Origin: Thalia democratica
Lineage: Eukaryota
Length of the DNA stretch: 64,000 bases
Assembly: GCA_965202585.1 (NCBI GenBank)
Contig: OZ241834.1
Location: 8,184,001-8,248,000, forward strand
Direction: 5' to 3'
Part shown: positions 8,701 through 58,629 of the stretch, piece by piece
Position numbering within the stretch: the first letter of the stretch is position 1
How the letters are laid out: every line of letters starts with the position of its first letter
Notes under the pieces: generated by a model
The model's input: the letters and a program-made list of their open reading frames with translations, nothing else
Told to the model about the DNA's origin: nothing
Databases searched by the model: none
Program-made: the position numbers and the translations under genes

Positions 8701-9312
8701 CAGAGGCGTCGCTTGTGGTGTTACACTGCCGCAATTGCACCACTTTAAAACTTTGTAAGACAAAATTAAGTATCTATAACGTTTTCGTTATTTTTTAGTA
8801 CAAAATCTCTTATAAAACTCCAATTTAAAAAACGACCATTTTGCTCACTACACTGCCGCAAATGAACTCAAAAAAGCAAAATTTCTTCAAGAATTACCGC
8901 AAAAACAATATCTTGCGGTAAGTAAGCTAAGTTGACAACTCCCTAAAACAGTACCGGTTTAAGTATCACTTAACAAGCGATTGTAAACAAAAAATGAAAA
9001 CAAAAATTAGTAGAGCAGGGACAACTCGAGCAGAGGCAACTCGAGCAGAAGCGATTCGAGCAGAGGCAACTCAAGCAGAAGCGATTCGAGCAGCGCAACT
9101 CGAGCAAAAGCAACTCAAGCAGAGGCAACTCGAGCAGATGCAACTCGAGCAGGGACAACTCGAGCAGGGACAACTCGACCAGAGGCAGCTCGAGCAGAGC
9201 AACTCGAGGAGGGACAGCTCGAGCAGGGACAACTGGAGTAGGGGCAATTAAAACACCGGCAACTCGAATTTTTTTTTGGACTACCTGAGAAAAAAACCAC
9301 GCGACGCCACAG
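8701..9312. mobile_element. hAT-like non-autonomous DNA element (MITE) with internal minisatellite
   Basis: Imperfect terminal inverted repeats: CAGAGGCGTCGC at 8701 and GCGACGCCACAG at 9301-9312. cactgccgca occurs twice in the left arm. No clean 8-bp TSD visible. Related termini at 39890 and 54174. Confidence 0.65.
9013..9247 (+). repeat. 15-bp tandem minisatellite (consensus about CAACTCGAGCAGAGG), about 15-16 units
   Basis: Direct 15-nt periodicity with a recurring CTCGAG palindrome. Explains the QLEQ/ATRAE/SSR ORFs in the track. Confidence 0.95.
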
Positions 9313-23232: not shown

Positions 23233-26200
23233 GAATTAAGGTCAAAAGTGTAGAAGTTTTTAAAAAAACGCTAAATGTAATGCATGTTTAATTATAAAGG
23301 CTCTGCTGAAAATTAAAAAGAGCAATGAGAAATTCTAACGTTAACAAAAATAGTTCATTCTAGAAAGTAAGGATTAGCGCTAAATTTTCAAAAGTTGTAA
23401 AAGTATTAAGTAGCCTAGTTATGAAAAATTGTTATAAAAATTGAAAAAAACAACCTATTAAAAGTAAATTAATAATTAATGTAAGGTATCCAGAATTCCA
23501 GAAATAGTATGTCTAAACTTTAAACATTTGATTAAAATTTTATATGTTTTAACTTAAATTATCTTGCTCGAATATATTTTACTAATTTGCTCGTAGCCAA
23601 TCACAACTAAATCGTTCAATGATTTTTTTATGAGAAAATCACCGCTGAGTTATTAGAGTATTTCATTTTAAGTTAAAACACAAGTTTATTCAGCATTGAG
23701 AACTGTTTATTACTTGAAGTTTATAAATGCTGCCGTTCAGTATTTTACTTACTATAAATAAAATAAACAGTACACTTGATTTGAGGAGTTCAAAATAAAT
23801 TTATTGATTTGCACAAAATGTTTCCAATTTGAAAACATTTAGACATTTTATTTTGAGGGCCTCAAGTTGCTTATATCGTTGTTTTGTATAAAATCTAGGT
23901 CTAGGTCAGGCAGGACTTTAAGTCAAATAATATCACTATTATTTACTTTTTTTTTTTTTTTTAAATCCAAACTAACCTCAATTTAATTGTTTCAAAAACG
24001 GGTATAAAAAGTTATATTTATTATTTAGACAAAAATTTTGCAACGATCATTTTAAATTATATTTCTAATTTAAACAAACCTTTTTATTTAGAAACTGATA
24101 GTAATTTTAAAAATGTTATAAAACTAAATTTTTTATATCTATTTTAAGTAAATATTTTTTGCTTTGGAAATTCTGAAAAACAAACTTGTAGTTAAAGTGT
24201 AATATTAACTTTTTTTATTGTAAGAAGTTGTTCTTTGTTATAATAATTAACAATGTTTTAGTTTATTTTAGAACTTTTGAATACTGAATTATAAAATCAA
24301 ATTATTTACTTCCTGTTAAAAGTATGACTTTGATAAGATTTAATTGTTTACATATTTACATATGTTTAAATAAAACATGCTGAGTTTGTTGTTAAAGAAA
24401 AGAAACCTTTAGTAACAACTACTTGTGCAACATAAAGGTTTGTAAATCACTAAAAAGTTAAAAAGAAAAAGTATCTGAGAGTTTCAAGCTGTTAAAGTAT
24501 ATTTGACAGCTTAAAGTTTTAATGCGTGAGTCTATCTGCCGTGAGTTCTATCTGCCGCTAACCAATATTTTAAGAGCAATTATTAAAGTTATAATTATTA
24601 ATTAAAACCTATAAACAGTAATTAAAAAGTGAACTAATAAGTTACAAACTATTAGTGGCTTGTAATTTCAAAAACTCATGTATAGTTAAAATTAAAATAA
24701 AAAACTATGAAGTGAAAGTGGCCTATAAAACATAAGTTTATTTTCTGAGTTTTTTAAAATCTATTTTATATCTTAACCATTGATCAAGTAAAAAAAGTAA
24801 AATAGTTGTTTAAATGATTGTAAGTTATTTGTTTATACATTATTGTTGTTTATATCTAAATTTGTTTTATCTAAACTTTATAACAAGTTTCATTTTAATA
24901 ACTGAAAATCAAACATACTTATTACATGAACTTGCACATTATGAAAATTGTAGGTTTTCAAAAATTTGTATGAAAAATACATTAAACTTCTTTAAGTGAC
25001 ATGCATCAAAAATGTTATTGTTGAAATGTTACTTGTCTCTTAAGATATAATATAACAAAAGTTTATCAAGGAAAATATTTAAATGTTTAGTTTCAAGCTT
25101 TAAGTGATTTAAATTGTTCACTAACAACAGTTTTTTTGCTATTCTAATCAAAATATTTATTTGTTGATATTTTGTTCAGTGCATTACATGCTTTTTCATG
25201 AAAATTTTTCACAAATCAGATACATCAATTGAAACGCAGTAAAAAATAATTTAGTCTCTTAATTCGTCGCTCACTTCAAATATCTGTAGTCTATATCTTG
25301 CATAACTTAAATTTTAATTATGTTAAGATAAAAAGCCTTAACGTACCTTAAACATTTATTACTAAGTTTATGAGTTTTCTGGTTTACATTTTAGAACTTT
25401 TTTGTTTAACTCTACAGTCTAAAGTGCTTGTATACATTAAAGCAGTTTATATTCAAACTTAAAATTTTTTGGTTTTTACTGCAAACCATATTTTAATTAG
25501 AATTATCTTAAATTTTAAATATACAATTGTTTGAACAAACCCAACTTATTAGTTTTTTATCACTTCTACTAATTTGGGAATTACACTATATTAACTGCAT
25601 GTTTTCAAGTAAAACGGCATATAAGTAATTCTATATGTCTTACAAAATTTCAAATAATTGATTAAAGTTATTATAAGCACATGCTTTGAGTTTAAGTCCA
25701 AAAGTGCAATTTGAACAATATAATATTTCTGTTGAAATTCTTAATTTTTTCCAAAATTTATTTTTAATGTTGAAATTATATTCTGCTTTGTAAAAACATT
25801 AAAACTTTGCTTAATTAACCACCAAAATACATGTTATACTTGTTTTTTAATTGTTTATTCAGTCTCAAGTTTATATATTTGATAAAGCAAAATTCACAAT
25901 TGTTTTTAAAAACCCAGAAAAATTGTTTAGTGATATAAATGGTGAAAAAAATTGGTATATTTAAATAAGATATACTAAATATAAAATATTTTTATAAATA
26001 TTGATATCTTTTAACTTTCTAAATTGTTAAACTAAAATTTGTTTACAAGTTTTCTTTTATTAAACTTGATAGGTTAAGTGTTTATAACTATGTTATAAAC
26101 ATAATTAAAAAACTTATTCTAATGTTGATTATATGCTTTATAACTAAATCAAGTTTTTAATTTTATTGTAAAAATTAAGTACTTATAACAGTCTAAAACT

Positions 26201-34700: not shown

Positions 34701-36124
34701 CAGTCCAAACTTTGAAGTGATCAATTACTTTCTTAATAGTCAGCTGAAAGTGCTTGCTTTACATTACTAGATATTTTAGATAAAATTAACGACGATTTAA
34801 GTTAAGCACATTTGTTTTTATTAAATAAAAAAGAAAGAGACAGTTTACTATTTGATAACAAAAAAAATTCAGCATAGGTATTAATAAGTTTTATAAATGA
34901 GATATTAATAAATTAACATGTAGATTACAATATGCATTTTTATGTTCTAGTCATCTAGTGTACTTCAAAGCTATACAAACTTTTGAAATGGTGCATAAGG
35001 GTTTCAAAACTTGTAAACATAAGTACAGTTTGTAAAGAAAAATTTATAAAACATATATTCAAAACATGGTTAGTTTGCTTATTTATAACAATGCTTACAA
35101 AATTATAAATAGTCAAAACTCATAAGCGTTTTAAATGTGTTTATTGAAAAGGTAAAAATGAAAGCTTATGAAAAAAACAATTAAAAATATTCGGACGTTT
35201 AAAAATAATGTTAGTTAGTCAAAATAGTTACATTTCAAGTTAGATATCAAGTATGATGTTACTTTCTCACAATACACTACTGAACTTGGTTTTGAAGGAT
35301 GTAGCTGCGTATTATGACGTCACATTCTTACGTAAGCGATCACGAGTTATTTGCGATCATAGCATTTGTGAAATTCTTTCAAGAAATGCAAACAGCATTA
35401 AACTTCTTTTTGAACTTGAGCATAGTAATACAATTATATTTTCAATTCTTTTAACTTTTACTGTTTTAAATAAGATTTTTTTTTGAACTTGAGTTGAGTG
35501 AAACAGAACAATTTTGTTTCATACTTTTGAGTTTTATTTTTGATATTATTATTGAAAAAGTTAGTTATAGTCTTGAAAAATGTTTACTCCTAAAATTGTT
35601 TGGATAAGTCTGTTTTTATAGTATAAACTTTTAAAGCAGACAATCAAATTATTTTTCTTATGGTTTTGGATTTATAGTTTAGATTTTGTAAGTAAAAGAA
35701 TGAATATTGAAGTTTAAAGTTTTGTCTTTTCATACACATTTGTACTATTTGTATAAAAGTTACTTTGTAGTCAAGTGTTTTATATAAAAATATTTAGTAA
35801 ACTTAACATCTTATGTAGTATTTTATTTGATTTATTTATTATAATTAAAGCCATAACTATTAAACTAGAATTTATTGAAATATTCGCGATCAGTTTTTTA
35901 TAAATAGAAGCGTTTCAAAAAACAATTTAAGCAATAGTTATTCAATTGTAACTTCTAAAAACTAAATTTCGTAAAAAAAATTTAACTTTTTTCTGTTTCT
36001 AAGCAACTAGCATTTGATAATAAAATTTTGAATGAAGTCAAACTTCATATAAATTTTGTAATAAAATTCCTAACTCAAAATAAAAGTAGTGGATATATAA
36101 ACTGTAAAACAAACTAACAGATAA

Positions 36125-36661
36125 ATGGTTTTAAGCATCGACTTACTGGAAGGCAGAATGGAAAACTTTTGGTCGCTAGGTGGCAACGTTGAAACGTGCT
36201 TCTACGGGCATTTCGATCCCGATGAGGACGTGGTTGCTGTTACGTCACAAGAAGAAGACGACGTATCGGAGATGATGCGCCGCATGTCCCTCCATGGCAA
36301 CCAGAAGACCCTCTCCCGTTGCTACGGAGTGGAGAGAGTAGTGTACGAGAGGTACGAGTCGCTGAGGAGCTTCGCAAACAGATCCGTCGAACGCAACAGG
36401 GCCAGGGTGCGACAGGTGCCGACCGTGGAAGGGTGTCAGCAGTTGCTAGGTAACCTCAACCGGGACTTTATCAGGTACAAGGCCACCGGAAGCGAGCCTC
36501 TGAACCTGACCGGGGAGTTTTTGTCGTTCGCCAAAGACGCGGACCAGTTTAGGACGCCCGAAGAGCTGATAGGGGACATGAACACGATCCACGTCGCTAT
36601 TTTGCAAAAATACCTGAAAATAAGAATTCAGGAAATTTCAATGATGCATGCTTATTTTTGA
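36125..36661 (+). CDS. Uncharacterised 178-aa protein, copy A (intronless CDS, GC-rich)
   Basis: ATG-to-TGA ORF, GC-rich core, splice acceptor ctaacAG 4 nt before the ATG. Versus copy B, 8 of 9 substitutions are synonymous, which supports real coding function. Confidence 0.85.
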   Translation: MVLSIDLLEGRMENFWSLGGNVETCFYGHFDPDEDVVAVTSQEEDDVSEMMRRMSLHGNQKTLSRCYGVERVVYERYESLRSFANRSVERNRARVRQVPTVEGCQQLLGNLNRDFIRYKATGSEPLNLTGEFLSFAKDADQFRTPEELIGDMNTIHVAILQKYLKIRIQEISMMHAYF

Positions 36662-39600
36662 TTGTTAAAAATTAAAATAAAGTTCTGCCTAATTTAAAAA
36701 TATTATTTTTTTAAATAACATAAAACTAGTTATTTTTAAGGATGGAATTTTCATGTTTGCAATTTCGAGTTTAAAATTTCAAAGATAAGTTATTAAGATT
36801 TATTTAAGAACTAAGTTTCTGAAAGTAATTTTTTTATATCATAATTTCAAAGTTTTTAAACATTTTATCGTTATTATTATCTTCAGTAAAGCACTAGACT
36901 GTATTACACGATCATTAACAACAATCCATGTGATATTTTGCGACTTTGTTTTGTCTTCATTAGGACACACCAGTCAATTGATCGTTCACAGCTCATTGTT
37001 AAAACGTTGTCAGTTTCAATATAAAACTACAGCTTACGTTTGTTTGATCTAGCTAGAATCGAAAAGTTTCAAGCACTTCAAAGTGTCTACTTGATGTGTC
37101 CTAATAAGGACAACATTGTCGCATATTTTCGCCTGGACTGTTGTTGGTGGTGCAGTGTAGTGCTTATTGAGTTTATAATTATAATCAGAAGAACACTACC
37201 TTTTTATCACGAGTATAAGTATAAAAATTATGCACTTGTATTTATCAAGCCTTAATAAGTTTACACTAGTTTTCACGGTCTAAAAAAAATTTTTAATTTT
37301 TTTTTTTTTGTTAATTTTACACTTAATTTGGTTTAAAAAAATAATTCAATTACTCAATACTTTAAAGTATTTGCAAACATTTTAACTACTCAGTTAAGTT
37401 TTAACTTTTATTTTTATTTTGTTAATATCTGTCCTTTTTCACCCATAGCTGCTTTAAAAAGGAAACAAAGTTTATCATTCTGAAAATATTTTGTTTTTCC
37501 TCATTTTGTTTTCTAAAGTGATAAACTTTTGTTTAAGCTTGTTTCAACATGGTCCAGTTGTATTAATATGATAATAATTATTTTTTAAAAGAATATTAAG
37601 TAAAAAATTAGCTATAAAAGTATATAGATTCTTTTTTTTGGTGTTTTGATTTGATAAAAATTCAAAGTTTATCTTTTCTAACTATAAAGGGAGTTGTTTA
37701 AATATTTTCATTTTTACTTGCATCTTACAAAATTTAGATTATTGGTAGAAAATAGAATATCTGATATTAATAGAAAGTTAGAAAACAACCTTTAATTGTA
37801 GATTACAGTTGATACTTTTTTTTTAAGTTAACACAAAACTTTTTAAACATCTATGTAGTTTTTTTCTGATGGTTTTAGTCATCAACCGATTAATTAAAAT
37901 TAATTTATCAAATTAACTTGTAAACTTCCAACAAGTTTTTTTTTTTTAATTAAATATTTTTTTTCTACAAAGTTTTATAAGTATAACGTTTTAACATTCA
38001 CATACTTCTGATATCTAAACTACTAGTTTGATTATGTTCAATAACCAGGTAAACACACTTTAGATGAACTTGCTGTTATATGTTGATAAAACTTAACTGC
38101 TTAAAAGTGTCAGCAGTCACAGAATTTACGCTTTTTAAAAGTTATTTCTAGTAAGCTAATACAAGTCTATATTATTATGATTCTAAGCTTTTTAGTTTTA
38201 GATCTTTTTTTTCAATTAACGTTAAAATACTTATAAACCTTGTAGCTTACTTTTTTTTGACCTTTATAAAAAATTAAAAATGAAAAAAAAACAGTTTTTC
38301 TTGTACTAAAGCATGTTATTATCTATTTAAAAAAGTCTAGTTTTTATGTTTAATTTTTTTAAACTTTTAGAATACTAAAAGTTTCTTATTATTTTGCTTT
38401 ACAATTATTAGTATACTCGAAAGGTTTTTATTGAACTGCATTTATTATTATTAATTTTTCTTCAAGTAATGATATCATTATTAAAAATGTTAAAAAAAAA
38501 TTAATACATTGGGTTAAGAAAAGCATTCAAGTTAATAAACTTAAAGCAACCATGTCATCACCTTTGTTTAATAATTTGAAAGAGTAGCTGTTAATACGTT
38601 AAACAAAAAAAAAATATTACGCGATTTTGTGAAGTAAAACTAAGGAATAACTAAACTAGGAATAGTTTTATTTACACAATAAAAAATAATCATTAAAACA
38701 TTTTTTATACTTGGAAATTTTGTTATTTTGGTTTAACTTTGATATTTATTAATAAGGGTTAATTTTCTTATGTATAAATCAAGCTTTAAAAAATTATGTA
38801 AAATTTATAATAACTAAACTTTATTATAACATATTTAATAGCTTCATCTTTTAAATAAAATCTCCTTTAGTAACAAAAGTTTCAAAATGTAAAATAAAAT
38901 TAATAAAAGTAGTAAATGTAAGTAGCTGAACTTTGAGTAATCTGAACTTCGTCTTTTTAAAAGCACGCTGAAAAGAATATAAAAATGAAATTTTTCGGTC
39001 AGTTAATCTTGAACGCCATTAAACTAATTATATAAGTCAAACGATTTTGAAGTTGTTACGAAACAGGGTTAAGATTTATTTTCTTAAACCACTGCGTATA
39101 TTTATCTTTTGTTGATTAAACTTAAGTTATACCATTGTTGAAAAAAAAAACTATATTTCAAGTATACTTGCTTAACTTTCTGACGTATAAATTAACACCT
39201 TGTAGATTTTTAACCGACTAATAAATTGTAATATGAAAGGGTCAGTAACCGTTTCAATAAAACAATAAATTTGCATACTTGAAATATAATTTAGAGTGAG
39301 CACCGTTTAAACGTCATTTAGCAAAGAAAATACATAATCTAATATCAAAAAAACTTTATGTTGGCTCTATTTTCATACAGTTTAGTAGCAGAAATTTATA
39401 ACACTAGTTTACAATAAATTTTTGAATATATAAAATAAATAGTTATTAAAAGGCAAAATTAAATTATACAATCCTTCATTAAGTCATTTATAAGTTTTAA
39501 AAATAAATTATCTATGTTTTACACCAATTTTTTTACTAAAGGAATGTTAAATGTTGCTAATTTTCTAGAATCTAATACAGTTATAAATTATAATAAATAT

Positions 39601-39889
39601 TTTATTTCGAAAGATAACTTCAAAAATAAATACCAGTGAAGAGTACTTTGCTATTGAAAAAAAATTCTAAGACTTACAAAAATAATACACTAATGAATTT
39701 TTTTGCTAAGATTCCTTTTGAAGTCTTTAGTATCTAAAATGGGGTACCCCAAAGTTGGTAATAACTTTTTTAAAGGACAACAATAGTCAGTGAGGATTCG
39801 AACAACTAAATTGATAAATAAACAGTAAATTGGTAATATTTAGTAAAATTGGAAGATTATAAACCCCTAAGCTATATAAACATTGTAAC

Positions 39890-39925
39890 CAGTGGCGACG
39901 CATGGTTATTTTGTTAGAGGACAAA
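39890..39925. mobile_element. Terminal fragment of the CAGTGGCG hAT-like family
   Basis: cagtggcgacgcatggttattttgttagagg closely matches cagtggcgtcgcgtggtcactttgttagagg at 54174. No matching far end seen. Confidence 0.55.
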
Positions 39926-41606
39926 GAAAATTTACAAGTAATTGAAAAATTCCCTTTTACGAAAGTTCTAAAAACTAACTTACTAAAACAAAAGTACTAC
40001 AATTACAACACATCGTTTATAAAAAATATTTAAAATATATTACTTTTACAATACTATATTGTAACTAGTTGTAACGTTTTATAACTAAAAATCTTTACTT
40101 AACAAATAAATACTTTTTAAACCCCTTAAGGTCCTTTTGTCTGATCCTAAGATGTTTCAACTTATACCAATGTTTAAGAGATAAAAAAAATTCAACTTGA
40201 TAACTAACTATAGCTGTTTTTTGTTTAATAAATGCTTATTTTACTTTATAACAAAAACAAGATTTTGTTATTCTATAAGTTCGTTTTTTTTAGTCAATCA
40301 AAAGAAAGTGTTTACATTTTCTTTGTTTTAAAACACTTTTTGATTCATGATGACTAACTATTCTTGTATTAATGTACTACCTTACTAGCTAGAAGGTATT
40401 AGAGTTTGTTGTTACCAACTTATTAACTTAAAAAAAAATCGAACAACAAAATAACACAGACCTCAGAAAGTTTACTTTCTTCTAATGATTTACTTATTAA
40501 TATTTGAAACAAAATAGTATCATAATAGTTTTCAAAACTAGTACTCAAAATTTAAAGCATGCACTAATATGTAAATTAAAATTTTCTGATAATATTATAA
40601 AGAGGCAAAGTAGAACATAAGTATTGAACAATTACAAATGAAAAATAAGCTTATGTTTTCAATTAAAAAGATTAGAAAAAAAAATTAAACGACTAATACA
40701 ACACTACCTATAGCTAACTTGAGTTTAACATAATTTTTTTACACTTTATGAATTGAAATTTGTCCTGTCTTATTATGAAATTTTATTCTAAGCTAGCCTT
40801 TAAAGAATGAATCAAAGAAAAAATTAATGACCTACACTTGTTCATATATACGTCGTAATTAAAATTGTAATTAATATATTTTGAACTTTTTTAGATATGT
40901 TATGGTTTAAGAGATTGGCTATCTTTTATATAATTAAAGATACTATCATAATAACGTAAAGCACTTTTTATCTTTGTTTTAATTACATGGAATATTTGAA
41001 CTAAAAAGCGTTTTAGTCAGTAAATAAACATATGTTTTATAAGACTTTAAAACTTAAAGTTAGTGCGTTACTCATCAAGATAACAACTATAAATTATTTT
41101 TGCTTTGTAACTTTAGAAATATAAAGTTATTAAATTTAAAATAAACAATTACTTTTAATGTGGTTCGAAATCTAAATGCTTTAATGCAGTTGAAATTTGT
41201 CATAGCTTAATTTTAACTAACTTAACAGTTATTAGAAATTGTACATTTTAACTATAAAACTTTAAGATTTTATTTGTTATATGAAGAATGCACGTATCCG
41301 TTATTTAAAGGCTTAAACAATTTAAGACTATCTTTATAATATCTTTACAAAAAACCGTAATAACACTTTAATGACTTAAAAAAATAAGTTTATAATAACT
41401 CTAAACATGATTAATGTTTATGTGAGCTTAGTTTACTTTTTACGATTCGTTAAATTGATGTTATTTCTTTTACTAAATGACTCAGAAAAACCTTGAAAAG
41501 CGTTAAACTAAATTCAAGGTTAATATTAGTATTTTTAACTGTTCAAAATATAGTTTCAATTGTTTGCTAACAAAAGATCCTAGTAAAGTAACTTCACTGG
41601 AATATA

Positions 41607-42781
41607 AATAAAAACAAATTATACAGTAATCTTCCTTTATTCTACCAACATATGTTTCTGTGTGTCAACGAATCAACACACTTCAACTGGGTTCTGTAAA
41701 AAAAATAATTACTGTAATAAGAGAACAGAAGCATAGAATAAAGTAGGTGTATACATGTTTTCATTAAAGTAAGATATTTTCTACAGATGATAGTTATTAA
41801 TAAGTGAAATACTTAATATTAAATCCGACTGTTATAAAACTATATGATATAACACAATTTACTTATTAAATATATAAAATATCTGTATGGGATATTTAAA
41901 TTAAACAGCCGACTCCTACTTTACCAATTAATTATTTTATTAATTATAAAATACAATATATATTTAATTCAGGTCATTATGATTTTATGTATGTCGCTGT
42001 AAATTAATTATCGGTCAGTACATTGTAAGCCTAGTAATAATTATGTTTTTTGTGTTTGGTTTTTTCCTTAAAGTTTAATTTTTTTCCTTAAAGTTTAGTT
42101 TTTTCATTTTTTCACTTTTTGATTTTTACATTTGAACTAAATTTGCTTCCTAATTCTTTATAACTTTGATTCAATCATTACTAACATTCAATATATAATA
42201 TACATGTTACACTGAGTTTCTGTGACTTTTATTGCCTTCAGCGTCGTTAAGTTTTATTAAATTTTATTGATTTACTAACTAATGGTTAATGTTTTATTTT
42301 TGTTCAAAATAGAGTACATAAAAACAAAATTAATGTTCTTCACAATACAAATTAAATAGTTTAAATAACCTCATTTATATTGTGACGTAATTATTAGTTG
42401 TAATGAATGTATTTGTTTCATTAGTTAACAACGATAGATTTTGATTTAGTTATCTTTCCTATTAACGTGAGTTGTTTGTTTATATTATGTTTGTTGTGTA
42501 ATTTAGCTAACTTATTTATTTTAGACTTAAAAATTACAAATATCATATAGTTTTATAACAGTCGGATTTAATATTAAGTATTTCACCTATTAATAACTAT
42601 TATCTGTAGAAAATATATTATTTTAATGAAAACATGTATACACCTACTTTATTCTATGCTTCTGTTCTCTTGTTACAGTAATTATTTTTTTACAGAACCC
42701 AGTTGAAGTGTGTTGATTCGTTGACACACAGAAACATATGTTGGTAGAATAAAGGAGATTACTGTATAATTCGTTTTTATT
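41607..42781. mobile_element. Non-autonomous foldback/long-TIR element (about 245-bp inverted arms, about 690-bp AT-rich spacer)
   Basis: 41607-41850 is the near-exact reverse complement of 42540-42781 (e.g. tgtgtcaacgaatcaacacacttcaactgggttctgtaaaa / tacagaacccagttgaagtgtgttgattcgttgacaca). No ORF. Confidence 0.8.
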
Positions 42782-44646
42782 AGTATTTTTAACAATATAA
42801 AAGTATATTATTCTAACGGTTTGAATAATTTTCTTAATAATTTAAGATTAGTATTTCAGTTTGACTTCAAACAAGTAAAACTTCTAATATCATAGCTTTG
42901 TTTTAAAATGCCCGTTGAAACGTGTTTTATAAAACTTTCTTTATTGTAGTAGATATAGTTTAATTGTAATTTGTTTTATTTTTCTTCGAATTCTGCTACT
43001 AAGTATTAATAAAGTAATAATGTTACACTTTTTGCTAATAAAACGTATAACAGTTTAAATAGGTTTACAAACTAACTTATATTAGCTATTTCAAACTGTT
43101 ATGATAATAGCCATACTTCTAATAGTTCAAAACTTCCACATTTTAATATAAATCCGATTTTACGGACATGTACAAAGTAGTGTACATAAAAGTAATTGCT
43201 GTATGAGAAAAAGTTTTTGAGTAATTAAAATATTCACGTTAAATATTTTTTTTAAATATATATGTGATAATAAAAATAGTACTCAAACTTTTAGTATCTA
43301 TCAAATGACAGTTTTTTACTATTTTAGAAAGATTAATTATACGAAAAGCCCGATTGTTAGAAATTACATAAGTTTGAAGAACAATAGATATAAATAAGTT
43401 CTTAAACTAATAAAACAAGCTTTTTATTTCTTATGTTTTGAAAAATAGACTTGTTTTACATGTTGCTACTTACATTAAACTTATTTCAAATGCATACTTT
43501 AAGCTTGCGGGCCAAAAGTGACCTGTGATGCACTTTTCAGCTAAAACAACTTTTTTTAAAACAAATAACAAAAATGTTTGTGGTAAAAACTTACTATAAG
43601 GTTCTTATTTTCTTAATTACTATATCACTTATTTTACCATATTTTTTGTTTAAAGTAGTATTTATATGTTGACTACTACAGTTGTTTGAAATAACTGTGG
43701 CCATCAGAAGACTATTTTCTTTAAAAAATTTTGAACTAGGACTTATGAATGTTGCCGGCCTCTAATATAATTGTTGATATATTAGAGTAGTTTAACTTTC
43801 ATTTTAATAGTTAAACTAACTTACTTGTTAGTTTTTAAAAGTAGCTTAATAACTTTAAATTGTATATGTTTATTAAAATGTTTAAATATTGGTGTGCTTT
43901 TAGATTTTTGCAAAAATAATACCTCTTTATAGTTTAATTAGTAAGAAGTAACATTTTTTAAGTTTATAATACTTAACATGAAAAATTAAACATGTTATTA
44001 TTTTCATTGTATAACCGAGCTTATTTTGTTTGGAAGTTTTAATCAACTTTTAAAAATAAAGTTTCAAAAGTTAAAGTGTTTACTTAAATCAGATAAAGAA
44101 AACGTATCGGTTTTAACATACGGAAGTTGTTCAAATAGTCGATAAAATTGTTAATAATCAACTTGTTTATTTGCTTTGCTTTGAATAGCTGCATTACGAT
44201 TAACAAATGGATGAGTACTGCATCAGTAGTTTGTAATATATTTTTCGTTTTTTTAACTAAACAAATTAAAGTTAATTTTTTTATTAGATAGTATTCTAAG
44301 ATGAATTACTAAATAAGTGTATTTTTGTAATTAATTAGTTTCTTTAGTTTTCAGTGCTAGTCATTTTTATGCAAATTTAATCAATTTGCTGTATACATTT
44401 GTAAAAAAGCTTTTTTTTTTGATAATATTAATTAAAAAAAAAATATAAAAACTGCAGGAAAAAAAGTTAAACTATTATTTTTAAAAGTGTTAGTTAAACT
44501 CTTATTTATACTAAAGTTTTATCTCTTATCAACTATTAAACACTTTAAGAACCAAAAAAAAAAATATGTGAACTTTTAATTTATATAACTTTTATTCTAG
44601 CCACTCATAAACATTGTTTTTACCATAGAAATTACTGTTATCAAAA

Positions 44647-45612
44647 ATGCAGTCAGCTCCCATACCATCAGTTGCAGTCTCAATTGAAAAAGTAACAAAC
44701 AAAACAACTGGCGTCCAAGTGAAAGCTACCGACTTCCGGCTCACAAAGCAGCAGGGAAAACTTTTTGGCGGGAAAACTTCAGTTAGCTACCAACTGATTG
44801 TTTGCACCAATAAGGCGGCCAGTTTGGGCTGCAGGAGTGCGGAAAAAGCGCGGGAAGTTCAAGACGGAAGCGACGTGACGTTCAGTATAAAAAAATCTTA
44901 TGACGAAATACTGACGCTTCGAAATTTGCTGGACAAAAAGTTTTCCGGCACCTACTTCCCGCCCTTTCCCAAGAGTTTAGTTCAAAGCAATTCGACTTTG
45001 ATCGAGCAGCGGAACCAGGCCAGAAGTGGGGTGGAGAACATCAACTCGCTCTTCAAAATTTGCTGCGATCTGAAAAAGATCGTTTTCCAGGAATTTTTTT
45101 TGCGCTTTTTCGGGTTTAAGCTGGCAGCTGCAACGGAAGAGATGTCATCTGGAAAAAAATCGGCAGCTGATAAAAAGGAACAGGCTCAAAAGAAGCGCGA
45201 CATCTTTGACGAAGACTCATCGGATGACAGCTCCGACTTGTTTGAAGAAGAAAAAGCAGACGACGACCACGAGCTTTTCTCACAACGAGACAAAACAAAC
45301 AGTAGTGCCAGCTCCTTTAAAATGTTTGAATTTGATAAACACAAAGAAGAAAAGAAGGTTGAAAAGGTGAAAGTAAAGCAAACACACGTAGAAGATGTGG
45401 ACGAAGACCTTTCTGGCTTGCTCAGCCAATTAAAAACTGTCAAAGAATTCGATGCAAAAAGGAACGAGAAGAAAAGTTTAACAGAAAGAAAACCTGTATC
45501 AACTGCATCAGCTGAAGTGAAAGACGTAAGTGAAGGTATTGATGAGGAGAATTTGCTGGAATATCTGAACAACAACGCAGTTACAGAAGAATTAAGTTTG
45601 GACTTTGATTAG
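44647..45612 (+). CDS. HS1BP3: HCLS1-binding protein 3-like PX-domain protein, intronless CDS
   Basis: N-terminus MQSAP...TNKTTGVQV...GKLFGGKTSVSYQLIV...FSIKKSYDEI...PPFPK parallels the HS1BP3 PX domain as I recall it. Followed by an acidic DDSSDLF linker and C-terminal LLEYLNNN...LSLDFD, similar to HS1BP3 ILQYIQDH...PSLF. Confidence 0.8.
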   Translation: MQSAPIPSVAVSIEKVTNKTTGVQVKATDFRLTKQQGKLFGGKTSVSYQLIVCTNKAASLGCRSAEKAREVQDGSDVTFSIKKSYDEILTLRNLLDKKFSGTYFPPFPKSLVQSNSTLIEQRNQARSGVENINSLFKICCDLKKIVFQEFFLRFFGFKLAAATEEMSSGKKSAADKKEQAQKKRDIFDEDSSDDSSDLFEEEKADDDHELFSQRDKTNSSASSFKMFEFDKHKEEKKVEKVKVKQTHVEDVDEDLSGLLSQLKTVKEFDAKRNEKKSLTERKPVSTASAEVKDVSEGIDEENLLEYLNNNAVTEELSLDFD

Positions 45613-47689
45613 TGTTTAAATATTTTTTTTTGTAAAGTTTACAAATTCTATTTATTTTTTGTTGATTTTTTTTGTGTTATAAAAGTAAGTATGCTGTATT
45701 TGTATTTAAGAAAAATTAAAATGAAAGGAAAAACTTAGTAACACTTTAACGAAGAAGTTATAAATTTTTTATCTAAATGTTATGTTCTTTTTTCTGATAA
45801 ATCTACTATTTATTGTTATTAATAAACTTTGGTAAAAATGTTTTTTTTCTCGATGTATTTAAAAAATGATGTAAATTATAAGATCAAATTTAGTTACCTG
45901 AATTAAAAAGCAACATATTTCATATCGTTCAAACAACTTCTATACAAACTACTACGTGTTTACTTAACTATATGTACCACACTGGTTTAAAATACAGTTT
46001 TATTTTATCTTTTTAAACTTCACACACGTTTTAAGTTACTATTGTACTCCTACGCATTCGATTTATACTTGCTTTCGTCAAACTAATAAAAAAGTTTGAT
46101 TAAATTTACATTAAAATTTGTACAAGTATGCACTTAAAAGTTTAAAATGTTTCGGTTTACATTTTAAATTACATCAGTTAGCTTTGTTTATTACTTTAAA
46201 TTACTTTGTTTATTGTGATTCCTATTTAGAGCTGAACAGATGTATATAAATATATATCCTTTTAATAAAACTGTATGTGCTAATACAATTTACAAAAAAT
46301 ATATACACTAACTCATAAATCAATTGAAAATTTTAAAATACCACAATATTAAGTGATAAACAAAAGCTCCTGTACACACTGCACATATACAAACTTTTTA
46401 AAACACAAATATAAAAAGTCACTACTTTTATATATCTAAATAAGATTAGTGCTTGTTACTTATCACTATAACTTATTAGAAAACGTTTAATTGATTGAAA
46501 AGTCTTAAAAAAGAATTAGCTAATCTCGATTTTTTTTGAAAGATTGTGAATATATTAAATTATAGAATATTTTATGAGCAATTGTTTTAACATAATATCA
46601 ATTTTTAAGACAACATCAATTGAGATTAACGTTCATTTTCTTTTATGTTTATTAAACAAAAAGTGTTTAGGTGTTTTACACAACTTGTAGTGTATATTTA
46701 TCTTTTAAGACACGATTTGCTAAAAAATCGAGTTTCTAAATTATTAAAACTATATTGCAATTGAAATAAATTATTTTAGTTTTAAGAAAAATTAGTGCAT
46801 TACCTTTGATATGATCTAGAAAGTTTTTAAAGTTTGAACATAAAGCCTTACAATACAACAAATGTATATTTTAGTATTATGATTTAAAAATAATACCTTA
46901 TATCACTAGAACTTATATAACTTAAATATTTCATTATTAACAATCTATAAAAAGTTTCCAGTGTTTAGAATAAACAAGATAAGATTGTCCATGTGTAATT
47001 AATAAATTTTCTGAGGCTTGTGTTAATTAAATATAAGTGTTAAATAGCGAGCAATTAAGCTACTTAGTAAGAGCAAAAACAAATTAAGATCTTCTGCTTA
47101 ATATAATAATATACTAGTAAGAGAATAGCTAACTGCTAATATAATTCATAACAATTTATAAAAAAACATAGAAGAACTTTAATAATTTCTAATTTATATT
47201 TTTTAAAACACTAACAAATTGAATTTCAATGAGTTTGTTTGAATTGAAAATTATTTATTTAACCTCTGTTGTACAAATTGTAGTTTTATTTAGTTATTTA
47301 AGTTAACAGTTTTGTTTTCGATATTTGGTTTAATTAGCTTACAATTAAATATAAAAACCTAAAAACTTATTATATGTTTGTTTTACAAAGTTTTATATTT
47401 AAAAATCGTTACAGTATTAGTTTAGTGCCACTGAAAGTAACAAACTTTATGAAACCTTTAAACAAATTTTCAAAGTTTGTCAGCAAAAAAAATTATAAGT
47501 TTTTAATTTTTTTTTAATTATTTCAAACTAAAACAATATCTTGTTCATCTTGTAAGAAATTTCTAGTAACAATACTCTCAAATGTAAATTTTAATGAAAA
47601 GGAAGCTAAAAAAGTATTAAGTTTGGATGTTAAAGATTACAAGTAAAAGTGTATAATTTTTTTAATTTTTGTTAAGTTTTAAAAACATG

Positions 47690-49190
47690 TTATTCTCAAA
47701 AACTTAGTTGATATATACATATAGAAATCACGGAAAATGAAAAAGAGTTAATTAGACATTGCTGCAAATCAGTACTGCTCCACGAAGGTGAACCATGGTT
47801 GAAAAAGCATAACAAAAACAGCTTTGATGTACCAATGGGAAGCTTTCATGGCGCAGAAATTTGCGAACTGGTTGGCCTATATATTTTAAATATATTGAAG
47901 AAGGAAAAGATTTTTAGAGAAGGTAACTTTGGCATATACCGTAAAGATGGTTTAGCAGTTGTGGACATTCTATCGGGACCAGATATGGAGAGAAAAGTCA
48001 AACATCTGAGAAAAGTTTTTAAAAACATTGGTTTTGATGTTACCATCGAAACCAGTCTGTTTGTAACAGACTTCCTAAATGTAACTTTAGATCTTCAAAA
48101 TGAAAGCCATAAGTCATATAGAAAACCAAATGCGCATACAGTTTATGTGAAAAGCAAGTCAAACCATCCAGAGCATGTGTTAAAACACATACCGGTCGCA
48201 GTGAATAACCGCCTCCAGAAGATTTTTAGCAGTCAAAGCATTTTCAAGGAAACAACCCAACAATACCAGGAAGCTATAAAAGAAAATGGGTGCGATCACG
48301 AATTAACCTATAGCCAAAAAAACGAGAAGGGTCAGAATAAGAAAAGAAGGAGAAAAAATAATTTATTTTTCAATGCTCCATTCTTCAAAAGCGTGGCAAC
48401 GCGGGCTGGGAAGTGCTTCCTAGAGATTGTGGACAAAAACTTTACTGAAGACCATTCATATTGTAAAGTTTTTAACAGGAAGACACTAAAAGTTTCTTAT
48501 TCCCGCATATCAAACATGAAACAACTTATAATGGCACACAATCGAAAGATGTTAGACACGCAGGACAAAGAGAGGCTAATATGTGACTGCAAAAAAACAA
48601 GAATGCCCGGTAAATGGAAGTTGCCTAATGGAAAACTTTTATATAAAGCGACAGTCATAACTGAAAACCAGACAAAGTTTTATGTTGGCTCTACTGGACT
48701 ATCGTTCAAGAATCGCTACACTAAACACAAGTACAGCTTCAAACACGAAAAACATAGAAATACGACAACTTTATTGCATTACATTTGGAAACAAAAAATA
48801 ACCAAGTTAATTTTAAAATTCACTGGGAAATACTTACAAGTACGGAAAACAAATATAGTTTAAAAAATTGATGTAAATTGTGGAATGCGGAGAATATCGA
48901 AATTTTAAAAGTTAAAAAATCTGAATCTCTAGACAAAAGAAACGAATTACAAACTGGCTGTATACATTATCGGAAACCATTTACCTAAAAACTCTGTTAA
49001 TAGTTTTGTCTAAAATCAACTAACTATTCTATTATAACGTAATAGCTAATTTTATATAATTTTATTGCTCTACTTACAAGTTTGCTTTTTATTGAATAAA
49101 ACTTAGCTGAAGACGCGTATTAAACGCAAAAACAGCTGTTCCAAAAGTTTATTTTGTGTATTTTAGTTTCAATATACATACATATATATA
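47690..49190 (+). mobile_element. 5'-truncated, decayed Penelope-like retroelement (RT C-terminus plus GIY-YIG endonuclease)
   Basis: ORF 47799-48863: FDVPMGSFHGAEICELVGLYIL (RT motif B), GIYRKDGL (YRDD with D>K, inactive), FLNVTLDL, YRKPN...SNHP thumb, and GIY-YIG region LLYKATV...FYVGST...FKNRYTKHKYSF. Frameshifts flank the ORF. Confidence 0.92.
49095..49153 (+). ncRNA. Degenerate minimal type I hammerhead ribozyme in the Penelope 3' terminal region
   Basis: CTGAAGA core at 49107, stem II gcgt-attaa-acgc, GAAA core read as AAAA, palindromic stem III AACAGCTGTT, and imperfect stem I (aaacttag / caaaagttt). Confidence 0.55.
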
Positions 49191-49271
49191 TTAACTAACA
49201 CGTACTTGCATAAAACTGAAGTTACATTGTTTAAAGAAAGATTAGGTAAATTTTTATTTTAAATTTAACAA

Positions 49272-49808
49272 TCAAAAATAAGCATGCATCATTGAAATTT
49301 CCTGAATTCTTATTTTCAGGTATTTTTGCAAAATAGCGACGTGGATCGTGTTCATGTCCCCTATCAGCTCTTCTGGCGTCCTAAACTGGTCCGCATCTTT
49401 GGCGAACGACAAAAACTCCCCGGTAAGGTTCAGGGGCTCGCTTCCGCTGGCCTTGTACCTGATAAAGTCCCGGTTGAGGTTGCCTAGCAACTGCTGACAC
49501 CCTTCCACGGTCGGCACCTGTCGCACCCTGGCCCTGTTGCGTTCGACGGATCTGTTTGCGAAGCTCCTCAGCGACTCGTACCTCTCGTACACTACTCTCT
49601 CCACTCCGTAGCAACGGGAGAGGGTCTTCTGGTTGCCATGGAGGGACATGCGGCGCATCATCTCCGAAACGTCATCTTCTTCTTGTGACGTAACAGCAAC
49701 CACGTCCTCGTCGGGATCGAAATGCCCGTAGAAGCACGTTTCAACGTTGCCACCTAGCGACCAAAAGTTTTCCATTCTGCCTTCCAGTAAGTCGATGCTT
49801 AAAACCAT
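49272..49808 (-). CDS. Uncharacterised 178-aa protein, copy B (inverted paralog of 36125-36661)
   Basis: 9 nt differences from copy A in 537 nt by manual comparison, with a single T>S change (KATGSE vs KASGSE). Acceptor ctaatAG 4 nt before the ATG is retained. Confidence 0.85.
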   Translation of the reverse strand: MVLSIDLLEGRMENFWSLGGNVETCFYGHFDPDEDVVAVTSQEEDDVSEMMRRMSLHGNQKTLSRCYGVERVVYERYESLRSFANRSVERNRARVRQVPTVEGCQQLLGNLNRDFIRYKASGSEPLNLTGEFLSFAKDADQFRTPEELIGDMNTIHVAILQKYLKIRIQEISMMHAYF

Positions 49809-52800
49809 TTATCTATTAGTTTGTTTCTCAGTTTATTCTGTATTTCTTTTAATTTGAGTTTGAAAGTAAAACTGATCTGTCTATTTTTATTTCCAAATTA
49901 TTTGAAATTCTGAAATCTGACCTTATACAACTTGTTTTTAAATTTTAATATACAAGTAAAATTAATTTGGTATTTTTGAACTTTATATAAATCTGATTTT
50001 GTAAAGTTTTGTTAGAAATTAGATGGTAGCTTAAAGATTAATAAAAAAATTAGTTAAATTTACTATAAAACAATATTAAAAAAGATTTGTAATTTTTTGT
50101 TTTATTACAGAATCACACAATGTACCCTAATCATGTTTAACTGGAAATGAAACTTCCTTTAAAATCAATGTTTGTAAAAAAAAATTCACGTATTTGGTTT
50201 TGATAAATTTTGATAGTCAAAAAGAGCACTTTATACTAATCTTTTTTTCTTATTATGAGTTGCGGCTCCACTCTAAGTGAAATAACTTTCAGTCACTTTT
50301 TATAAGTAGTTTTACAACTTAAACAATCTTGTCTGAAACTTTTTTTCGTTTTAAATTTCTATAAATACTAAAAATATGTATTAAATTTAGTGAAATAGAT
50401 TTCTACAAATAAAGTTTATTAAATTTATTTTACAAAGCAAAAAGCGTTAAAAAATATTAATACAACTATTTTATTGATAGAATAAAACTGTTTTGTGAAA
50501 ATCATTAAGCTATGGACGAAAATACTAATGTTAACTAACAACAAAACATTGTTAAGCTTACAAACGTTTTATAAAACTCGCATTTAAAAAACTTTATTTT
50601 AAGTATGAAATAAATTTAAATCAATAACGTCAAAAAGTTTTTATAAAAGTAAACCAAAATAAGATCAATTTACTTTAAAAAATACAAACATAACGTAGTG
50701 TAAATTTAACTTGTATTAAAAAAACAACACAGCAAAGGAATTAAATACTTGAGTATGAATAAAAAAAGTAATTTTTGAAAGCCTACATTCCTATGACGTC
50801 GACATACGTATTTTTTGTAAAAAAATAAGTTCATGTTTAATAAAAGAAGTACTTTGTTCAAAGCAACAAATAACTATATTGAAAATTTTATAATAGTTAT
50901 ACAATGATGAGAATATTTAATACTCTATAAACACTTTTTTTTTTTGTTATACCTTATCTTTTAATTTTTTGATTGACAAAAGCTGTTCACTAAATCATTT
51001 GATTTCGTTTTCATTATTTTTAACTCTTTAACTATAGCTTTACGTAATATCACTAAGCACATTAAAACACGTATAAATTATATCATTAAAACCTTTAAAA
51101 GTATTGGTTTAAGTACTAAATATAGTATAAATATTTTCTGAGAAAGCAAACCCGTAAATTACCTCGAATTCTCGATTATATAGTAACAAAATAAAGTCGT
51201 TATAATATGCTTTAAATTCATAAATAAATAAAAAATATTTGCACGTATTTCTCAATAAAAATAAAATTATTATTTAAAGTGTTAGAAAAAATAGAACATC
51301 TTTAATTTTGATTATATGAAATTATAATTTTGACTAAAACTTCTTTAAAAACCGAATAACTAAAAAAAACTGTTTTAGTATATTATAACAAAATTTGTTT
51401 CAAACTTTGTTGGTTTATTTTAATTTCAGAAGAATTTTCTTGTATTTACCTTTTGGAACTTTATGTAATTACACGTTTTTTATTTTTGGTTTAATTGCTT
51501 TCTTCATTTGACTACTGCACAAAGTATTTATTTGTCCTTGAGCTTCAGTTACTTACACTTATTTATTTCTAGTAAGTGTAATACAAGCTAATCTAGCATA
51601 AGTTAAGTTCAAGCTATGACTTTTTTTTTGTAAATACGAGATTGTTTTGTTTTAACTTAATTTATCTTGATAATGTGTAGATAAGTTTAAATTTTCTAAT
51701 ATAACCTTTGGTGTTGCTTTAACTTATTATTAAAAGTTTGTTCGTTATTGTATTCGAACAACTTTGTTTTTTTGTGTGAAGCTAATTACTTATAATCTAT
51801 TTGTATTTTCTTTTCAGATTGCTTTAAACCAAACTGCAGCTCTCGGGTCAAGTGTCCGTAGGGTAATTTCATTAAGAACATACCTTTTAAAACAATATTA
51901 TGGTTAAAAATTACAATAAGACTCTTGATTTTAAATCTACTCTTAAATTGTCGTTTTTTCTGCTTATCTTATCTATCTATTTAGGCTGGTTATTTTATTT
52001 TAAGCCAACTGCAGCCTGCAGAATATTTATTTTTTATGTAGTCTGACCCGTGAGCAACATTTTATAAGAAAACTGGCCTAAGATTTATAAAATATTTGTA
52101 ACTTCTTCTTTAAACAATGATCTACAAACTGTGGTAATTTGAAAAAAAAAACTTTCTTACTTGAATAACGATTATAAGCTTCTAATTATTATAACTCTAT
52201 ACACCTTTAAATTTCATGACTTATATAAAAGTTGTATAAAATTTGTATTTTACTTGATAAAAATATAATTTGGATGAAGTTTTTTTAAAACGAGATTAAA
52301 TAAAATCAAAATTAGTATAAGTAATCATTACAGAAATTACGTAAAATATATTTCGTAACACTGTTTATTTCAAAATGTTTTCTAAGTAATAGTAACAAAA
52401 TAGTTTTTTTTAATACTTTAAGTAATACTATACAATAAATAGAAAAAAAAACCTAGACTATTGGATAAAGTTCCTGTCTATATATTTGAATTATTTGGTT
52501 AAAAGAATACTTTATTTAGTGTTATATTTACATAAAACTATAATATTGGATACCACAATTATTTGCTTAAACAATATTGCTCAAAGTCATGAAATTTCCA
52601 AAATTTTTGCCTTAGTTGAACTTTTCTACATAAAACACACTTCAAAAACAAATTAACATGTTATAAAATTTTTTTTAAGTAGAATTAACTCCGAAACTAA
52701 GTTTTTAAATGTATATTTAAATGCATTACTCTTCTACTTGATTTTTGTTTTTGTTAAGCATAATAAGGCAAGTAATTATGTTTTCTACAGTTATTGTGTA

Positions 52801-54173: not shown

Positions 54174-54770
54174 CAGTGGCGTCGCGTGGTCACTTTGTTA
54201 GAGGGTGCTGCAGATTGACATTGTCAAATTGAAAAATGTCATAGTCTGAAACACTTAGATTTAAATCATAAAGATTTTATGAAGAAATAGAAAATTTCTT
54301 AGAAAAAAATCGAACAAATTTGTTTGATTAAATAATGAATAGAATATTAAATATAATATAAAAAAGCACATATCTTATACCCACGTACATCATCACCCTT
54401 TCTAAACAACTATAGCTACTTTTATTTTTATTTATGTCCATGTAAGTTTCTGCACTTGCACAATTATAAATTTACTAACTTAATTTTTAGATTTTTCTAA
54501 CTGTTAATAAAAAACAAAAAAGTCATGCAAGTAACTTAAAAACCGAGGTTGCCCCTGCTCGAATTTTTCCTACTCGAGTTGCTCCTGCTCGAGTTTTTCC
54601 TTTTCGAGTTGTACCTGCTCAAGTTTTTCCTGTACGAGTTGTTCTTGCTCGAGTTTTCCCTGATTGAGTTGCCCCTGTTTGAGTTTTTCCTGCTCGAGTT
54701 GCATCTACTCGAGTTGCCCTTGTTCCAGTTTTCTTTGCTTGAGTTTCTTCTGTTCGAGTTCAACTTGTCT
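54174..54770. mobile_element. Second member of the CAGTGGCG hAT-like family carrying the 15-bp array, opposite orientation to 8701-9312; right end undefined
   Basis: CAGTGGCGTCGCGTGGT at 54174 matches the reverse complement of the 9312 terminus. It is followed by the reverse-complement array at 54548-54760. Confidence 0.6.
54548..54760 (-). repeat. 15-bp minisatellite (plus strand about GAGTTG/TTTCCTGCTC), about 14 units
   Basis: 15-nt periodicity, reverse complement of the 9013-9247 array family. Confidence 0.95.
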
Positions 54771-55559
54771 TATTGTGCTCGCGTTGTAGCAAATTTCAAC
54801 AACGATCATGATTTAAATCACATGGTGCTGCAAGTTCATGCAGCTCTAGATACAAACTTTTCAACATATTTTGTATTAAAAACTTGTAAACGTTTAAAAT
54901 GCAGCTGACACAGATTGAGCTTGCAGCTCTAATTTTACGAACATTTGAACATCAAATATAAAATTTGAAAACAAATAATTTAGCAGGGAATTTAACGACG
55001 TTTATGTACATATTTGGCTGTATTTTTTGTACAATTTCATGATAAATTAACTTTATTTTTTATAAGGTAATATAAATATTTTTATATCATTTTAAAGCTC
55101 AATTCCTCAGCTTAAAAAAATTTTTTTTTGACTGATTTGGGGTTGTACAGCTGAAGTAGGGGCATGTTTAAAGCCACGTGTTTAAAAGTAGTAAGTAAGT
55201 CAAGTTTTTTATAATAACAGTTTTTGAAAATATTTATGTACAATGTCATTTCAAAACTGCACTTAGATATGCTTTAGACATACTTAAGTTACATTTCTAT
55301 TAAAATAAAAAAAAAATTAAAAAATGTTTAGACTGTTTTATTATAACTTGATAGTTATAAAAATAAACGGTACTAAAAAAGGTATAACAGCGATATAAAT
55401 GTTACTTGTAACAAACTTAAATTTATTTTATTTCAAATTGAAATATCATGTGCTTAACTGAAAAATATATTTCAAAATAAAGTAATGTTACAGAAAAAGG
55501 ATTTAAATGAAAAACGTGTTTTTAACGAAAACTCAGAAATAAATGAAATTTAAAAAGCA

Positions 55560-58333: not shown

Positions 58334-58629
58334 GATATTTAAACAATAAAAATTTATTTTTGTATAACTTACCTTATATGAAATATAGATAAAACTAATA
58401 CAGAAACCAGATGAACACTGAAAGGCGCCCTCCAGTGATCGGGTGGTCGTGTTGCGCGTGTCGCCACTGTGTGGTGCACCATCGCACCAATTCAACGTTC
58501 ACGGCTGACAGGAGCAGGTTCAGTTACACCATGCCGAGTTTCATCCAGGTTGAACGTGTTGGGAGCGGGGAAGAATATTTGGAGGTGCAACCCGTGGGAT
58601 GCACTTGCGGAGCTCCTAGGATCCAATGA
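55560..58629 (+). CDS. Interleukin-17-like cystine-knot cytokine, 5 coding exons, about 187 aa
   Basis: Exons 55560-55616, 56074-56138, 56632-56716, 57291-57421 and 58404-58629 join GT-AG in phase (564 nt). C-terminal half NKRSTAPWVQINQMNTERRPPVIGWSCCACRHCV...EYLEVQPVGCTC has IL-17 motifs with the right spacing (RSTSPW-x8-ERYP, CxCxxC, VGCTC). Hydrophobic leader AYFIYLLFHLLAPKVANAG. The last two exons are much more secure than exon 1. Confidence 0.85.
58283..58328. repeat. (TA)23 microsatellite in the last intron of the IL-17-like gene
   Basis: Perfect TA run ending about 75 nt before the acceptor at 58403. Confidence 0.97.

Follow-up and report, generated by a model that had tools for sequence, protein, structure and literature searches.

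Near-identical inverted copies of an intronless salp gene, probably kept alike by gene conversion limited to the coding region

Why do two genes that face each other across 12.6 kb of a salp genome remain nearly identical in their coding sequences while the DNA around them has diverged? The question is raised by a 64,000-nt stretch of the Thalia democratica genome (the window, in whose coordinates positions are given below unless another sequence is named), which holds two open reading frames (ORFs) of 178 codons each, lying tail to tail: copy A at 36125-36661 on the forward strand and copy B at 49272-49808 on the reverse strand. No inverted repeat in the window is longer than this pair (588 nt, 97% identical). 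With moderate confidence in the whole, we favour a reading in which an intronless host gene, which is transcribed, exists in two inverted copies, A and B; gene conversion would act on their coding region only, and their product is predicted to be a three-helix bundle that likely binds another protein.

The two coding sequences differ at 9 of 537 nucleotides, eight of these changes being synonymous (at third positions) and the ninth a Thr/Ser replacement (T121S). By the Nei-Gojobori method (NG86) the synonymous divergence (dS) is 0.070 and the nonsynonymous divergence (dN) 0.0024, giving a dN/dS of 0.035, and at least eight synonymous changes among nine are expected with P = 5e-5 under neutrality. 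Our recount thus returns the same ORFs and differences as an earlier note on this DNA, and these values bear out the purifying selection proposed there. None of the alternative frames over the gene is open, and the GC content of the coding sequences is 0.52, with 0.67 at third codon positions (GC3), in a window of 25.2% GC. Homology between the copies continues for 53 nt upstream, where 43 of 53 positions are identical and the alignment score (54) exceeds the best of 100 shuffles (44), and for 32 nt downstream, where 26 of 32 positions are identical and the score (32) is not above the best shuffle (38); farther out in either direction we found nothing above chance. The note had put these flanks at about 55 and 35 nt, and the acceptor that it saw in both copies is indeed shared (AAACTAAYAG/ATAA/ATG). 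In A the conserved 53 nt (36072-36124, forward strand) are likely the end of an outron followed by a 5′ untranslated region of 4 nt, with the acceptor AG at 36119-36120, and in B the matching 52 nt (49809-49860, reverse strand) place the AG at 49814-49813.

The near flanks of A and B differ at 16 of 85 aligned columns, as against 8 of 120 synonymous sites (Fisher p 0.014), a conservative comparison because local alignment of the flanks favours the best-kept span. Ten marine sequencing runs, X1 to X10, hold the gene, six of them on record as RNA and all of them available as contigs assembled from mixed plankton. A contig of X1 shows one listed difference, and at most two, from the flanks of A in 88 nt, so fast mutation of AT-rich DNA does not explain how far the flanks of A and B have diverged. 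Over the coding region the three sequences are about equally distant (A-X1 9, B-X1 8 and A-B 9 differences; heterogeneity p 0.007-0.027), and the A-X1 differences include 7 synonymous ones. We conclude that the coding regions of A and B are probably kept alike by gene conversion, and that two genes of what proves to be a family of three are most likely in concerted evolution.

The amino acid sequence provides a second line of evidence. Histidine at position 29 and valine at position 72 occur in both A and B and in none of the 25 other rows of the family alignment, where position 29 is Q, G or C and position 72 is G or R (X1 has Q29 and G72). These derived residues are present in both loci and missing from a copy elsewhere, which calls for exchange between the loci if the duplication is older than the split, as the flanks indicate; a mixture of the A and B of one population in the X1 contig would not weaken this argument. 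Additionally, when A, B, X1 and X2 are compared at codons 33 and 47, all four gametes are present, a pattern that allelic recombination could also give. In the underlying variant table, sites without contig cover default to the letter of A and were not counted (in X4, the neighbours of 36211 aside, 36451 and 36655; in X7, those before 36224).

It is unlikely, in our judgement, that A and B instead stem from a very recent duplication of the coding region and short flanks without any conversion, the flanks merely looking old through faster mutation of AT-rich DNA or an unrelated landing site. A dS of 0.07 does fall within allelic diversity (one flank has 25 differences in 277 nt between the haplotypes of X7), B is immediately followed by a retroelement-like repeat, and duplications limited to ORFs can mimic conversion (PMC3966223). 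However, the near flanks are homologous, about threefold more diverged than the synonymous sites, and decay gradually with insertions and deletions, and fast mutation alone would not leave these flanks as nearly identical in A and X1 as they are. There is no sharp breakpoint in the genome copies, and neither of them has a leader or a poly(A) tract. In X10 too, the coding contig breaks at the gene ends, at the start codon and near the stop, with a depth of 162 against 96-116; this run is labelled as another organism and may be of another species, and its version of the upstream flank of B has 19 differences in 796 nt. Retrocopying of a processed mRNA is also unlikely: the homology extends past the acceptor by about 47 nt of upstream outron sequence, which is absent from a mature mRNA.

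An old duplication without conversion, in which selection on codons or RNA structure has held the synonymous sites, seems to us very improbable. GC3 is far above background and reaches 0.98 in other exons of the genome, which suggests strong codon bias, but the 7 synonymous differences between A and X1 indicate that these sites vary freely among samples, and against a third family member (paralog C, described below) they are near saturation. Constraint of this kind also cannot place the same derived H29 and V72 in both copies. The earlier note had left gene conversion and constraint at the nucleotide level side by side; the flank test and the two shared residues support the former, the free variation of synonymous sites disfavours the latter, and of the two, conversion accounts better for how little the coding sequences have diverged.

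We give next to no weight to an assembly artefact that would have set two alleles of one gene side by side. The coding divergence is at the level of alleles, but beyond the short homologous ends the flanks are unrelated, a gene and repeats lie between the copies, and the coding contig of X7 has about twice the depth of its flanks (114 vs ~59-60). That depth is closer to a 3:1 allele split (105-115) than to a 2:2 split (93-102), a comparison that we did not use since GC bias is possible.

Under conversion, the duplication would be old, and repair of breaks from the neighbouring inverted copy would keep the coding parts alike while the flanks drift. The exchange would be limited to the coding region, and the two copies may persist for the sake of gene dosage. 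Elsewhere in the genome, at least 23 near-identical copies of a homeobox gene that looks Islet-like by its sequence lie in both orientations at 36.18-36.71 Mb of contig C4 and 69.83-70.22 Mb of contig C6, with exons 96-99% identical and surroundings far less so. A homeobox developmental regulator of this kind is normally single-copy. In eight pairs among 20 of these loci the exon identity is 95.8-99.4% in blocks that are mostly 68-94% alike, so coding-limited similarity is not unique to the A/B pair.

Is the gene expressed? RNA contigs of X1, X2 and X4, which come from two studies, cover it and align to the intronless copy A without gaps, with no cover at 35700-36075 or 36781-37100, and further RNA contigs in X3 and X5 cover it as well; this cover does not separate B from A. 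The X1 contig carries the flanks of copy A and spans 36076-36700, unspliced upstream to 36076. Its 3′ end consists of 17 untemplated A behind 36700, 19 nt after the AATAAA at 36676-36681, which sets the poly(A) site of A at about 36696-36700, and a corresponding AATAAA signal is assigned to B by its position (49253-49258, reverse strand). This is almost certainly an expressed host gene: where the earlier note allowed for two silent copies, transcripts exist, among them the polyadenylated contig with copy-A flanks.

The 5′ end of the X2 contig consists of 25 foreign letters joined at the AG (36119), four bases before the ATG, so that in this contig the acceptor pointed out earlier is in use. 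Twenty-one letters of this leader have 85 exact matches in the genome, all of them on C8 between 53,338,896 and 53,406,073 at a spacing of about 519 bp, while a control pattern has 0. In the array units that were read the leader continues with TACGAAG/GTAAG, a splice donor, in most and with GAAG/TTAAG in a minority; it is about 33 nt long and ends ...CATATACGAAG. A cis-spliced exon as the source of the leader is excluded because all matches lie on another chromosome. The 85-match array most likely consists of spliced leader (SL) RNA genes, and it is highly probable that the gene is trans-spliced and that the foreign sequence is its SL. Rfam has no match for the array unit, the last 17 letters of the leader are absent from the searched literature, and among the literature listings on tunicate and thaliacean trans-splicing we found no paper on a salp leader; a thaliacean SL is probably undescribed in the literature searched. 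The Ciona leader is 16 nt long, and the present one, at about 33 nt, differs from it in both length and sequence. The two systems resemble each other in that the leader comes from a multicopy cluster, the layout of the SL genes of Ciona, and is added at an AG immediately ahead of the initiation codon (PMC6836712).

How widespread is the gene itself? The T. democratica assembly (802 Mb) contains three matches by protein search and three by DNA search, all intact, without internal stops, and none decayed. The third is paralog C (C8:37854270-37854761), found by genome search, which is intronless, 163 residues long and 64% identical; over the core, A and B differ from it with dN 0.24, dS ~1.2 (near saturation) and dN/dS 0.21. 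It adjoins a WD40-like gene on the opposite strand, just downstream of that gene, and forms a separate clade with database relatives that are 80-86% identical to it. The pair described in the earlier note therefore stands, with a further copy on another chromosome that the note could not have seen, and the many decayed copies of a multicopy transposon or virus, which it had also considered, are not found. In the family tree a clade of 163-residue proteins that includes C is separated from a clade of 173-178 residues that includes A and B (support 100/100), so A/B and C had separated before the sampled populations or species did; A and B form a group of their own (98/91). Across six diverse members 78 of 178 positions are identical.

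A search of 5.8 billion proteins gave six family clusters among 40 candidates, with 24 members, none of them named. A search of 1.84 billion representatives, made without a word index, gave two matches, one a family member and the other a protein of 324 residues (P0025) whose last 82 residues correspond to residues 97-178 of the A/B protein at 96% identity and whose N-terminus is unrelated. This record is probably a chimeric assembly rather than a real fusion and was excluded from alignments and counts; no longer fused form occurs among 7,998 candidates, which is weak evidence. None of 38 stretches from viral contigs, 137 from JGI metagenomes and 141 from GTDB was confirmed as a relative, PHROGs gave 0 of 3, and no relative was found among phages or, at E 0.001 and with a weak query model, in BFVD. 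Pfam, NCBIfam and PHROGs returned nothing meaningful (only DnaD_N, at E 0.061 in 7 of 27 rows), in keeping with the earlier failure to recognise a domain; the best match of a PDB sequence search (AcrIIA4, E 0.18) we take as chance, and four family peptides are absent from the searched literature. Together, A, B and C are a lineage-restricted family of three tunicate genes, with a protein family undescribed in the searched literature and databases whose known relatives are a few plankton records. A functional, lineage-restricted gene in two copies, transcribed and under purifying selection, is thus what the locus holds; capture from a virus or by horizontal transfer, the other origin suggested for it, finds no viral or prokaryotic relative and no deviation from the GC of the host.

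The mitochondrial COX1 of the assembly (contig C1833) reads cleanly under table 13, with AGA or AGG where mammalian COX1 has conserved glycines, for example in the GGG of DPVGGGDP. A mitochondrial code in which AGA and AGG specify glycine marks tunicates, and the host is therefore not a cnidarian in whose nematocytes, as had been suggested, expression might be sought. The code likewise argues against Hydra or a chaetognath, two hosts that the AT content and the leader had brought into consideration; a search for the cellulase domain of tunicate CesA gave 0 matches, with no control signal, and carries no weight either way. High GC in exons is the norm of this host. The GC of eleven homeobox exons from this genome is 0.34-0.61 and their GC3 is 0.31-0.98 (at least 0.67 in 7 of 11), and 12 histone H3 matches have GC of 0.46-0.53 within flanks of 0.21-0.36; the GC3 of A and B lies inside the range of the homeobox exons, so their GC content is no sign of capture. 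Nor is conversion the source of the GC richness of the pair, since the single-copy paralog C has a higher GC3 (0.89). The published description of T. democratica gives 790.7 Mb and 25.3% GC, with coding GC almost 17 points higher (PMC13746493).

Could the family nevertheless descend from part of a virus or mobile element that was domesticated, for instance from the helical insertion domain of a P-element-type transposase? Remote homology to viral or transposon proteins is possible at the sequence level, and in the ESM Atlas a homologue (P0006, score 0.93, 160 of 256 features shared) clusters where 18-25% of the members carry PF21788 (TNP-like_GBD); the gene is also intronless, GC-rich and without relatives in other phyla. 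On the other side, 160 shared features are fewer than the 170 typical of true family members, 0 of 27 members match PF21788 at E up to 5 (with filters that drop weak matches), and no transposase is found among the PDB sequence or fold matches. The solved PF21788 domain is not among the 50 fold-match rows listed, for a query model of middling confidence, and a PF21788 search of the T. democratica genome gave 0 matches and no control signal either. With no decayed copies, no viral relative, no flanks shared among the copies, and with GC-rich exons and an intronless neighbour being normal in this genome, we regard such an origin as improbable.

The A/B protein (20.7 kDa, pI 5.3) has no hydrophobic stretch of 19 residues (highest mean hydropathy 0.71), its residues 1-62 form an acidic tail with a net charge of -9, and three helices are predicted in the core (71-96, 101-121 and 145-177), the first with a charge of +5. 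The lack of a signal peptide or membrane segment, the acidic patch and the helical remainder described in the earlier note all recur in this analysis. Modelling of residues 63-178 with AlphaFold2 gives three long helices at a pLDDT of 66, and with low confidence the product can be described as a small three-helix bundle behind an acidic tail. The predicted antiparallel three-helix core of about 105 residues resembles AHSP (1w0b), the N-termini of TBCC (2l3l) and Nas2 (3whj) and the C-terminus of HscB/Jac1 (3bvo, 3uo3) at Z 6.3-6.9, with the values AHSP Z 6.6, root-mean-square deviation (rmsd) 3.3, 85 aligned; TBCC N-terminus 6.9, 6.6, 90; and Nas2 N-terminus 6.8, 5.2, 92. With 4-13% identity and Z < 8, and tied with unrelated bundles, these matches reflect a common arrangement rather than demonstrated homology; Foldseek found nothing at E 0.001 or below. 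Conservation is densest in the first helix (SLRxFAxRSVERNxAR) and the last (DADxFRTPxxLIxDMNTIHxAILQKYL), and no set of catalytic or metal-binding residues was recognised by eye. Given its fold class, and since it shows neither signal nor membrane segments nor any catalytic motif that we recognise, the protein may be an intracellular adaptor or inhibitor whose helical core would grip a partner and whose acidic tail would be a regulated segment. This role is tentative and is the weakest step of our explanation, the next option being that the basic first helix might bind nucleic acid. A homodimer prediction (score 0.05) gave no answer, and a D-box-like RxxL (54-57), an RRxS kinase site and a BH3 motif are conjectural, some of them being inconsistently conserved.

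Several of our observations count against the overall reading. The flank test draws on one contig, that of X1; contigs assembled from mixed plankton may be chimeric, and rare variants may drop out of them. The leader was seen in one contig of one run (X2) and fits A and B equally. The AlphaFold2 model has a pLDDT of 46 at full length, and the best match of a fold search against 48,161 chains has a Z of 7.1, with none at 8 or above and unrelated bundles tying. The tests made gave no evidence of dosage selection or of a cell type. Loss of end joining cannot be invoked as a driver of conversion and was rejected as its cause, given the Ku-domain matches in the genome; XRCC4 is reported missing in thaliaceans (PMC13746493).

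The DNA between the copies holds other features. An intronless gene with a PX domain (44647-45612, forward strand; PF00787, E 1.8e-5), presumably HS1BP3-like, lies outside the duplicated unit and is covered by RNA in X3 and X5. It has two database relatives only (93% and 65%), and as a gene of a known family with almost no detectable relatives it suggests that the orphan status of A and B may partly reflect fast salp evolution. A high-copy repeat with an open frame of 383 codons (47712-49190, forward strand), unrelated to the gene, starts about 60 nt behind the poly(A) signal of B; in X10 its depth reaches 2e4 to 1.4e5 where about 100 is usual, X3 and X5 have RNA contigs on it, and it matches no Pfam family, although its motifs look Penelope-like. 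Likewise unrelated to the gene, a long MITE-like inverted repeat, its arms about 250 nt in length and 97-100% alike, surrounds a core of 689 nt (41601-42787). Elsewhere in the window, a degenerate 15-bp unit recurs in three arrays (8971-9267, 24548-24760 and 54524-54775; 73-76% alike, in both orientations), an IL-17-like exon lies at 58399-58629 (PF06083, E 0.009, under the cut-off), and exons resembling a secretin-type seven-transmembrane (7TM) receptor lie at 12890-15255 on the reverse strand (PF00002, E 0.03).

Good precedents exist for the process. In C. elegans, col-12/col-13 and the inverted hsp16-1/hsp16-48 modules combine near-identical ORFs with diverged flanks through interlocus gene conversion (PMC3966223), and A and B resemble them as neighbouring paralogs with like ORFs and unlike flanks, the inverted orientation included. 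Unlike those pairs, which are 0.4-1.8 kb apart and belong to known families, A and B are 12.6 kb apart with a gene between them and belong to no known family. The mammalian pairs BMP8A/B, DDX19A/B and TUBG1/2 have undergone long concerted evolution (PMC2720389) and likewise comprise exactly two paralogs, with greater similarity inside a lineage than across lineages. Many genomes, and introns, establish how old those pairs are, whereas A and B are intronless and their age is drawn from flank divergence and a few contigs.

A and B thus belong to an undescribed lineage-restricted gene family that evolves by a known process, and with the process well known and the function lacking, we consider the finding of moderate interest. 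Being free of introns, the pair offers a tidy system in which to quantify conversion between inverted copies, in an animal of very high polymorphism, and the leader could serve in practice to obtain full-length cDNAs and to recognise salp mRNAs in metatranscriptomes of plankton. Among invertebrates, salps stand close to the vertebrates; their development is unusual and few of their genes have been characterised, and in situ hybridisation now works in them (PMC12994792). It is conceivable, though we think it rather unlikely, that this is a salp-specific family with a helical module of its own, needed at high dose in a salp-specific cell type or stage, that the copies trade amino-acid changes across 12.6 kb in living populations, and that exon-limited conversion between GC-rich islands is general to the multicopy genes of salps. 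A conserved, expressed family of three members without a named relative is in any case a candidate salp innovation.

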